Of a stretch of DNA of 12,847 bases, positions 9,001 to 12,000 are shown piece after piece (the first letter of the stretch is position 1; each line of letters begins with the position of its first letter). Source of the DNA: a virus (lineage: Duplodnaviria > Heunggongvirae > Uroviricota > Caudoviricetes); IMG/VR virus record IMGVR_UViG_2695420763_000016, positions 1-12,847 of that record. One strand, 5' to 3'. Made by a program: the position numbers.

Positions 9001-12000
9001 AGAAAAGACGAATGTCACTTTGATACAAAAAGAGAAGCTTTTTGTTGTAAGTGATAATTAATGATATAAATATAGTTTTATGTGCTTTTATTTTTTACTA
9101 AAGCAAAATTAAGTTATTAAAATGGAGGGAGAGGAATGCCTGTAGATTTAACGCCTTATATTTTACCTGGGGTTAGTTTTTTGTCTGACATTCCTCAAGA
9201 AACCCTGTCTGAGATACGTAATCAGACTATTCGTGGAGAAGCTCAAATAAGACTGGGTGAGTTGATGGTGTCAATACGACCTATGCAGGTAAATGGATAT
9301 TTTATGGGAAGTCTTAACCAGGATGGTTTATCGAATGATAATATCCAGATTGGCCTTCAATATATAGAACATATTGAACGTACACTTAATCATGGTAGTT
9401 TGACAAGCCGTGAAGTTACAGTACTGCGTGAAATTGAGATGCTCGAAAATATGGATTTGCTTTCTAACTACCAGTTAGAGGAGTTGTTAGATAAAATTGA
9501 AGTATGTGCATTTAATGTGGAGCATGCACAATTGCAAGTGCCAGAGAGCTTACGAACATGCCCTGTTACATTATGTGAACCAGAAGATGGGGTATTTATG
9601 AGGAATTCAATGAATTCAAATGTTTGTATGTTGTATGATAAAATGGCATTAATACATCTTGTTAAAACAAGGGCGGCTCATCCTTTGAGCAGGGAGTCAA
9701 TCGCAGTTTCAATGATTGTAGGAAGAGATAATTGTGCTTTTGACCTTGACAGAGGTAACTTCGTTTTAAAAAATTAAGATAGCAATGGCGGGTTAACTTT
9801 TCGTAAAATGAAATTAATTCTCGGTACGACATGTAAAACGCGGCACCTCGTATGCAAGAACGTACTGCGGTTGGCTGGTGAACTTTCGATAGTGCTAGTA
9901 TTGAATGATTTCCAGCCGTTACCGATTTACGTGTTTATTAGTGAACAAACCACTCGTCAGAAGATTCCCAGGTATCTTTCAGAGTCTCCTGAACAAATGT
10001 TTTTGCAGAATCCTTATCTGCAGTGCGTGTAACAGAAAGCCCATCATTGCTGGTGGCTTTTACGATCACTTCTACATCGTCATAACGCTTACTGATGCGC
10101 CGAGTTAATTCTTCCTTTAACGCATCCACAGCACCGTTTGGCATTTTAGTCATTTTCTCTTTGGCTATGCAGATTTCAATACGCATAAAAATCCCTCTAT
10201 ACTGTGTTTGTATACAGTGTTATTTTTATCTGTATAAATAAACAGTGTCAAGAGGTCTTGTTTCTGCTCTTTTGGAGTTCTTCAAAACGATTATGTAAAG
10301 ATTTCGGATACAGTTCGGTATATACCTGCCATAGCACGTTTAATGAACGATGCCCTGTAACTTGAGCGACTTCCTCAATACTAAAACCAGCCTCAAATAA
10401 GCGACTTGCCCCTTCTCTACGCAAATCATGATATCGCAGATCTTTAATACCTAATTTGCTTCTTACCCTCTGAAATCCTGCGGTAACAGAAGTGCTGTTA
10501 TATGGAAAAATGAATTCTGATTTTTTTGGTTGTCGCTGGACGATATCCCAGGCTTCCCCAAGCAAGGCAACTTTCATATGGTTACCTTCCTTTTTACGTG
10601 GATCTTTCCTATCTCTTACTAGTATAGATTTTTGTTCTTGGTCGAGATCTTCCCATCGTAACCGGCATACTTCTCCGATTCGCATACAGGACCACACAGA
10701 AAATTTGAGGATATCAACGAACGGAATTTTTGAGCATTTATGAGTAGATCGTTGTTGAAGGCCTTCAATGAGCATGTCAAGTTCATCAGATGCTGGTCTA
10801 CGATTACGACGGTTTGATTTACCAATCAAACCGAGTTTAAGTAGATATGGACGAGCGCTTTTCGCCGGGTTTGATGTGTAATTGGTTCCGTATACAGGTT
10901 TTGCCGCATCCAGAACACTGCCAAGATAACTAACATCGTGGCTGACTGTTGCTGGGCCTGCACCAGCGTTGTTTCTTAGCCTGCAATGTTCAATTACGTC
11001 ATTTTCTGTCAGTTCAGATAGTTTGATCGCGGATATGTCACTATCCATAAGCAGTTCCAGCACATATCTTTTAGTACGGCCTGCTTTACCTCCGGCATTT
11101 GGGTCATTTAAATATTTGTGTAGTAAGTCACGGACTGTAAGTCCGTCAACTGCATTTGATGATGGAATGCCATATAGATCTAATTCCATCACTTTCTGTG
11201 TGCCCCATGTTTTGGCATGAGCATGTTTAGGGAATGTTTTGCTTTCCCTGTAAGTGATAACACCTTTTTCTTTGATAATCACATTACAGCGATAGCGTGG
11301 TGTGCCATCGGATTTTAGTCGTTTCTCTATGTTATAGTACGCCATTACACGACCTCGTTATTTCGGGTTCCCATAAAACGTGGGAACCTGTGCGGGAACC
11401 TAACGCGAGAAAAATAGCCTGAAATGTTCAAAAATGCACGATAATCATGAAGCACAAAAAATTAATCAAACCAGCGTGATGCCTGAAAAAACTGGTGTTT
11501 ACTGGAATTCTCGGTTTAGCATTGCTCCTATGCTCGACTGGACGGACAGACATTGCCGCTATTTCTTGCGTCTGCTTTCCCGCAATACGTTGCTGTATAC
11601 TGAAATGGTAACTACAGGGGCGATTATTCACGGTAAAGGTGATTACCTGGCGTATAGTGAAGAAGAACATCCGGTAGCGTTGCAACTCGGCGGTAGCGAT
11701 CCGGCGGCGCTAGCGCAGTGTGCGAAGCTGGCAGAAGCGCGTGGATATGATGAGATCAACCTGAATGTCGGCTGCCCGTCTGACCGGGTGCAGAACGGCA
11801 TGTTTGGTGCGTGTCTGATGGGTAATGCGCAGCTGGTTGCCGACTGCGTGAAAGCGATGCGCGATGTGGTGTCGATTCCGGTGACGGTGAAAACGCGTAT
11901 TGGCATCGACGACCAGGACAGCTATGAATTTCTCTGCGATTTCATCAACACCGTTTCCGGCAAAGGCGAGTGTGAGATGTTCATCATCCATGCACGTAAA

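Follow-up and report, generated by a model that had tools for sequence, protein, structure and literature searches.

Integration at the 5′ end of dusA is the work of a described family of tyrosine recombinases, the dusA-associated integrases (DAI), whose prophages and islands place a divergent recombinase beside dusA, supply the gene with a new in-frame 5′ end and also have semi-conserved att repeats and a PrtN homologue (Farrugia et al. 2015, PMC4482086). The replaced part of dusA holds the beta-1 strand of the TIM barrel, excision of such elements after mitomycin C has been shown by polymerase chain reaction, and the phage matches of the family include mEp460 and DC1, alongside listed E. coli prophages at dusA (PMC4482086). 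A PrtN/RdfN-type directionality factor is present in about 64% of dusA islands. In the island IMEVchUSA3 and related Vibrio dusA islands, int and the gene for a PrtN-type recombination directionality factor (RDF; rdfN) lie across attP from one another, the PrtN homologue RdfN is the excision factor, and experiments demonstrated a new promoter, functioning though weaker, and restoration of the dusA frame (Durand et al. 2021, PMC8409611). The Stx2 phage phi1720a-02 (phi-stx2dact) of Citrobacter rodentium inserts 100 bp into dusA through a 7-base core within a 21-bp motif and fuses a phage dusA′ in frame; the same study remarks on the non-canonical orientation of int and found circular attP in vivo (PMC6328086). 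Here we analyse a 12,847-bp stretch of a Caudoviricetes record (IMG/VR IMGVR_UViG_2695420763_000016, positions 1 to 12,847; hereafter the window), whose right end carries an integrase gene, dusA and pspG (Table 1). We regard it, with a probability of about 95%, as the int-proximal right-hand junction of a lambda-like prophage put into dusA by a DAI tyrosine recombinase, which agrees with an original prediction, made from the sequence alone, of probable dusA-targeting integration.

Alignment with prophage-free K-12, the comparison the original prediction had called for, locates a breakpoint of similarity exactly between nucleotides 96 and 97 of dusA. In the first 96 nt, 77 positions are identical (80%; 19 mismatches and 9 amino-acid changes in 32 codons), against 926 of 942 in nt 97-1038 (98.3%, the 8-bp core included), in which the earliest mismatch is at nt 168. 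Identity remains high 3′ of the dusA stop codon (374/376), and no significant similarity to K-12 was found upstream of position -3 from the dusA ATG; MAFFT alignments placed some apparent similarity around TATAGTAC, which was discarded for want of statistical support. The divergent DNA left of the break, 11434-11529 included, is identical to the attP region of the free phage mEp460 at 194 of 202 positions. Among 5426 complete E. coli genomes, all 5426 match the dusA-pspG part, and in int-free genomes such as K-12 the match to the window stops at the dusA start codon. Judged by these alignments, the DNA left of the core (the spacer and dusA codons 1-32 included) is phage and that to the right is chromosome. 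The start of dusA and the spacer match phage attP, rather than host sequence continuing up to int, the finding that would have spoken for an att site elsewhere.

The divergent arrangement of int and dusA across exactly 88 bp, with the dinI, NleG and tail genes on the 3′ side of int, is as first described. The original prediction also held that the prophage ends with int and that the chromosome resumes at once; the order int-dusA-pspG stands, but the endpoint does not, for phage DNA runs on across the spacer and 96 nt into dusA, as far as the core. Because it extends that far, the breakpoint falls inside the range originally singled out (10248-11560). The suggestion that the element supplies dusA with a substitute 5′ coding segment is borne out by the match to phage attP together with the in-frame gene, which keeps its full length of 345 residues, including the RFSIAP strand ahead of MLDW.

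The site of exchange emerges from an alignment of four att sites: attP of mEp460 (GCTCCT-ATGCTCGA-TAGGATGTACC), attB of K-12 (GCACCA-ATGCTCGA-CTGGACGGACA), attR of the window (GCTCCT-ATGCTCGA-CTGGACGGACA) and attL of the O55:H7 strain DEC5D (GCACCA-ATGCTCGA-TAGGATGTACC). The core ATGCTCGA is identical in all four, which on sequence grounds puts the crossover within it, at window positions 11530-11537, on the upstream side of int and 184 bp from its start codon (11345 to 11530). In mEp460, attP reads CTCCTA-TGCTCGA-TAGGAT, a 7-bp overlap between inverted 6-mers, and this free-phage site is the predicted excision product of the prophage. The position of the core also agrees with the published phi1720a-02 site, the printed attB of which holds ATGCTCGACTGGA on the other strand (PMC6328086). 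Different dusA 5′ ends do exist in E. coli without any integrase (the K-12 and LF82 types), so the divergent start could in principle reflect allelic variation or homologous recombination, with the real att site elsewhere. We give this next to no weight, as the 5′ end matches free-phage attP, the break coincides with the core common to attP, attB, attL and attR, and the break between the allelic variants K-12 and LF82 falls at this core as well.

DEC5D, the closest complete relative (97% identity over 95% of the window), contains a lambda-like prophage of about 49 kb. At its far end lie an annotated truncated tRNA-dihydrouridine synthase gene, the remnant of the native dusA 5′ end, and the same core, with a yjbM-like gene and zur beyond. 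The duplicated core and dusA remnant that had been proposed as a check at the other prophage end are therefore both present in this relative, the far end of the window's own prophage lying beyond the window. If the window belongs to a single element, that far end would be expected to carry a dusA 5′ remnant, TGCTCGA and then TAGGATGTACCG.

Within the core, the overlap can be narrowed by an insertion at a secondary site. The F-type plasmid pEND_Eco 18005 (NZ_CP126947.1) carries a prophage of about 44 kb whose tail is of the contractile, myovirus type and whose int/attP module is that of the window; it is located in a ParB/RepB/Spo0J gene at the site TGCGGCA (compared loci, here given L numbers: L002, 6319-6345; L089, around 13800-13830). 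Its left junction reads CGTCCCG-TGCTCGA-TAGGATG and its right junction CTCCTA-TGCGGCA-CCGGACAG, and the empty site reconstructed from them is identical at 307/307 positions to a sister plasmid, NZ_CP126932.1, that is 44.4 kb smaller. By this reconstruction the insertion is a precise secondary-site integration. Since the plasmid junctions and the empty site confine the exchange, the overlap is limited to the 7 bp TGCTCGA; that the two junctions retain different overlap sequences is what replication of a mismatched heteroduplex would be expected to leave. The overlap is thus defined by comparison, and a secondary site in an F-plasmid parB-like gene is tolerated.

The integrase itself is 98.1% identical to that of mEp460 and 99.7% to that of mEp460_4F5, 52-56% identical to integrases of Klebsiella, Vibrio and Salinivibrio phages, and 33.8% identical, over 96% of its length, to that of Burkholderia phage DC1. 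The catalytic residues R222, H306, R309, H332 and Y342 are present in a HMMER alignment to XerA (PDB 5hxy). On these similarities the protein is a DAI-family tyrosine recombinase, as the original prediction had supposed, mEp460 and DC1 both being named as DAI phages (PMC4482086). Its surroundings are likewise those of a phage of this type. In mEp460 (JQ182728) the order is side tail fibre, dinI, int, attP, two small open reading frames (ORFs), prtN and exo, and the portion from side tail fibre to attP is shared by mEp460, mEp460_4F5 and the window. As attP separates int from prtN in mEp460, int comes to lie at the tail/cargo end of the prophage and prtN at the opposite end, as in DEC5D; a PrtN-type gene across attP from int is present in mEp460, DEC5D and the plasmid prophage, the corresponding locus being outside the window. 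The mEp460 gene order and the place of the core upstream of int thus support the earlier statement that int sits at the tail/cargo end with att on its 5′ side, unlike lambda. A lambda-type module, with attP downstream of int and with int and xis kept together, is found in neither the window nor mEp460.

It could be argued that int, although targeting dusA, derives from a different element than the adjoining lambda-like tail and cargo genes, the two forming a tandem or mosaic array. The same int/attP module does occur on the plasmid prophage with its contractile tail, the NleG cluster separates the tail fibre genes from dinI-int, and DEC5D has an annotated capsid-gene fragment in the same interval. 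We consider such an array improbable, since free phage mEp460 has side tail fibre, dinI, int and attP in the same order and the DEC5D prophage is one continuous lambda-like genome between attL and attR. The integrase gene is intact and placed as in mEp460, and does not look like the remnant of another element.

Repeated sequences around the core suggest where the recombinase may bind. Of the 5 matches to the motif (T)GGGAACC across the window, three fall within 35 bp of the spacer (11365-11400), laid out as an inverted copy, 7 nt, a direct copy, 5 nt and a second direct copy; two further copies lie 57-80 nt past the core in attP (L005, minus strand) and attL. In Kosakonia and Phytobacter elements with integrases 82-83% identical to that of the window, the three-site layout is kept with GGGAGCC/GGGAACC, and in a Pluralibacter element (L028; integrase 70% identical) it is kept with a different motif, TGGTGTAC/CC. 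At L008 a paired change, GGGTCCCCA...TGGGGACC, preserves the inverted repeat. Because the motif changes along with the integrase while the layout stays, the repeats look like protein-binding sites, and we propose them as candidate arm-type Int sites flanking the core. We found no description of them in the papers on dusA elements that we consulted.

Comparison of the sites shows that recombination of attP with attB inside TGCTCGA has given dusA an upstream region and codons 1-32 made of phage DNA. The phage-supplied start, which in free mEp460 is part of a 40-codon surrogate ORF ending just beyond the core, is joined in frame to host codon 33 onward, with retention of the 345-aa DusA ORF. In the mechanism that we propose, the N-terminal region of Int would contact the (T)GGGAACC repeats of both arms, and RdfN, produced from the early-left operon once the prophage is induced, would decide the direction. 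Early-left, pL-type transcription reaches int only in the circular form, so Int in the lysogen would be made from a promoter within the approximately 184 bp that stay attached. We infer that the substitute dusA promoter must lie in the 88-bp spacer, and probably that of int as well. A GAGG ribosome-binding site stands 8 nt before the int ATG, and no obvious Shine-Dalgarno sequence was seen at the dusA ATG at codon 1 or codon 16.

Several observations weigh against this account. A sigma-70 consensus scan of 9800-11700 gave matches in the dinI promoter region only and none in the int-dusA spacer, and for this reason the spacer promoters are put forward by inference. Expression of the chimeric DusA and binding of Int to the repeats are predicted, and a Pfam search of Int residues 1-199 at E≤10 recognised no arm-binding domain, giving only a weak Int_N match (E=0.07). 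The attL site is known only from DEC5D, the window ending before the other end of its own prophage. Nor is the mobility of such prophages guaranteed, because DEC5D carries an insertion element in gpU.

This last point leads to a narrower doubt, namely that the junction is genuine but the prophage is fixed, defective and unable to excise, int and the junction being relics. Besides ISEc31 in gpU, which makes DEC5D itself probably defective, and several truncated genes in that relative, there is a 10.9-kb phage remnant at dusA in O157:H7 EC4115 (Farrugia Table S1, PMC4482086), and int has decayed to a partial copy in Intestinirhabdus (L057). In the window, int is full length and 98-99.7% identical to free-phage Int, the spacer, core and arm repeats are close to attP (194/202), and no frameshift was seen in the tail genes. 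A fixed relic is accordingly possible but, in our judgement, rather unlikely, and we retain integration into dusA by a DAI recombinase as the explanation of the locus.

The comparison with K-12 suggests a further point, that the K-12 dusA start is not native. The K-12-type start (32 codons and the upstream region, perhaps including yjbL-yjbM) is, on comparative grounds, probably a fossil of an older DAI element that lost its integrase. A short DusA N-terminus, M..ES....PA(H/Y)RFSIAP before MLDW, is found in 71 of 80 species representatives (Enterobacteriaceae). It is also found in E. albertii, the cryptic Escherichia clades and LF82, with zur about 150 bp upstream; in most other species zur lies 0.7-3 kb upstream of dusA. 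The LF82-type arrangement accounts for 1123 of the 5426 E. coli genomes. The long, 32-codon N-terminus is present at all five loci (5/5) with a DAI integrase beside dusA, and also in K-12 and in four species without an integrase within 4 kb. A stretch of 96-110 nt at the start of K-12 dusA shares 83-86% nucleotide identity with integrase-adjacent surrogates in Kosakonia and Phytobacter and shows no DNA similarity to its LF82-type counterpart. The point at which K-12 and LF82 part is exactly the att core; where LF82 has 141 bp, K-12 has about 1.7 kb with yjbL and yjbM in it (L001, 1142-1607, versus L007, 3869-4017; the species set is L008-L087).

We take LF82 as native and K-12 as derived because the LF82 5′ end resembles Salmonella dusA and has no phage match; for the same reasons the idea that the LF82-type end is the scar of another phage was rejected. 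A second dusA element, suspected in genomes whose match starts at window position 11521, was also dismissed, these being LF82-type alleles without insertion. Intestinirhabdus alba, which has only a partial integrase between zur and dusA (L057, 2922-3794; aa 39-334, 64% identical), looks like an intermediate stage of decay. In Kosakonia oryziphila (L067, around 3997-4093) the long-type 5′ end begins with AAG instead of ATG, another decay stage. No significant int remnant was found upstream of K-12 dusA by tblastn or sensitive blastn; a remnant of the native dusA 5′ end was also looked for in K-12, in the interval from zur to yjbL, and not found. The most economical reading is nonetheless that the K-12-type start was installed by an older DAI element, since decayed, so that one element-derived dusA 5′ end would have given way to another when the window prophage inserted. 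The literature that we searched holds no statement of such an origin; if it is true, experiments on "wild-type" K-12 DusA and its promoter use an element-derived N-terminus.

Table 1. Features at the right end of the window, with positions on the 12,847-bp stretch
Feature	Position	Strand	Basis or remark
NleG-family effector genes (cargo, 3)	7774-8352, 8425-9054, 9136-9777	+	Pfam T3SS_NleG E=1e-43 to 4e-47
dinI-like gene, directly downstream of int	9938-10186	-	Pfam DinI E=1.6e-18; same order in mEp460
Two LexA-box-like sites, CTGT-N8-ACAG	10202-10217, 10230-10245	.	between int stop and dinI start
int, intact 365-aa ORF	10248-11345	-	ORF call; Pfam PF00589 Phage_integrase E=1.1e-20
int-dusA spacer, phage-derived, 88 bp	11346-11433	.	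matches mEp460 attP region; no significant K-12 similarity
(T)GGGAACC, three copies, candidate arm-type Int sites	11366-11372 (inverted); 11382-11388, 11394-11400 (direct)		
dusA, 345-aa ORF	11434-12471	+	Pfam Dus E=1.6e-103; NCBIfam DusA equivalog 557 bits
Phage-supplied substitute dusA 5′ end, codons 1-32	11434-11529	+	80% nucleotide identity to K-12
att core ATGCTCGA, dusA nt 97-104	11530-11537	+	four-way att alignment
7-bp overlap TGCTCGA	11531-11537		plasmid secondary-site junctions and empty site
Chromosomal part of dusA, codon 35 to stop	11538-12471	+	in frame with the phage start
pspG, normal chromosomal context	12605-12847	+	annotated as pspG in K-12

To the left of int the window holds lambda-like minor tail protein genes, the central tail fibre gene J, the side tail fibre gene, lom, the three NleG genes and the dinI-like gene. 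The NleG trio (DUF1076, type III effectors; 7774-9777) stands in tandem, with the tail fibre genes on one side and dinI-int on the other. A 74-aa ORF with no PHROG match (9808-10032) lies between the last NleG gene and dinI; DEC5D has an annotated capsid-protein fragment in its place (the fragment and ISEc31 are at 4296-4415 and 18961-20174 of L003). The two CTGT-N8-ACAG sites at 10202-10245, which from the known consensus are putative LexA boxes, fall in the 61 bp that separate the int stop from the dinI start and overlap the region's only consensus promoter (TTGACA, 18 nt, AAAAAT). An Rfam scan of the whole window returned no matches.

For annotation, the consequence is that the prophage boundary lies inside dusA at the core, the first 96 nt of the gene and its presumed promoter being phage DNA, and that the DusA N-terminus differs between lysogens and non-lysogens. 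With a genome counted when it has 80% or more of int together with the surrogate 5′ end, the int-dusA junction occurs in 728 of 5426 complete E. coli genomes, O157:H7, O111:H8 and O121:H19 strains among them. In pathogenic E. coli, phages that carry effectors or toxins commonly dock at dusA. Integration into dusA with 5′ replacement is already published (2015, 2019, 2021), including the layout unlike that of lambda and the PrtN-type factor across attP. With the mechanism published and about one in eight complete E. coli genomes carrying the junction, the finding is correct but ordinary; the overlap, the secondary site, the candidate arm sites and the fossil origin of the K-12 start are by-products of modest value.

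Set beside the DAI prophages and islands, the window differs in nothing essential; its copy carries NleG effectors as cargo, a cluster that is absent from the free phage mEp460. In mEp460 the dusA′ surrogate is the 40-codon ORF of an unintegrated attP. Phage phi1720a-02, which we liken to the window from its published description, differs in carrying stx2 and in having a host of another genus, and the IMEVchUSA3 islands are not phages but mobilizable elements under the IncC plasmid activator AcaCD, with integrases distant from that of the window. Lambda is alike in its heterobivalent-type tyrosine integrase, its 7-bp overlap between inverted core sites and its repeated sites in both arms. It differs in that att lies 3′ of int with xis beside int, an arrangement that allows sib retroregulation, and in that no gene is rebuilt, whereas in the window att lies 5′ of int, and in mEp460 the PrtN-type RDF gene lies across attP. 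The integrases of tRNA and tmRNA genes, and that of the integrative and conjugative element SXT at prfC, share with the window the principle that the element carries a copy of the displaced part of its target, so that the gene stays intact. The tRNA-targeting elements replace the 3′ end of the gene, whereas the element of the window, like SXT at prfC, replaces the promoter and the N-terminus.

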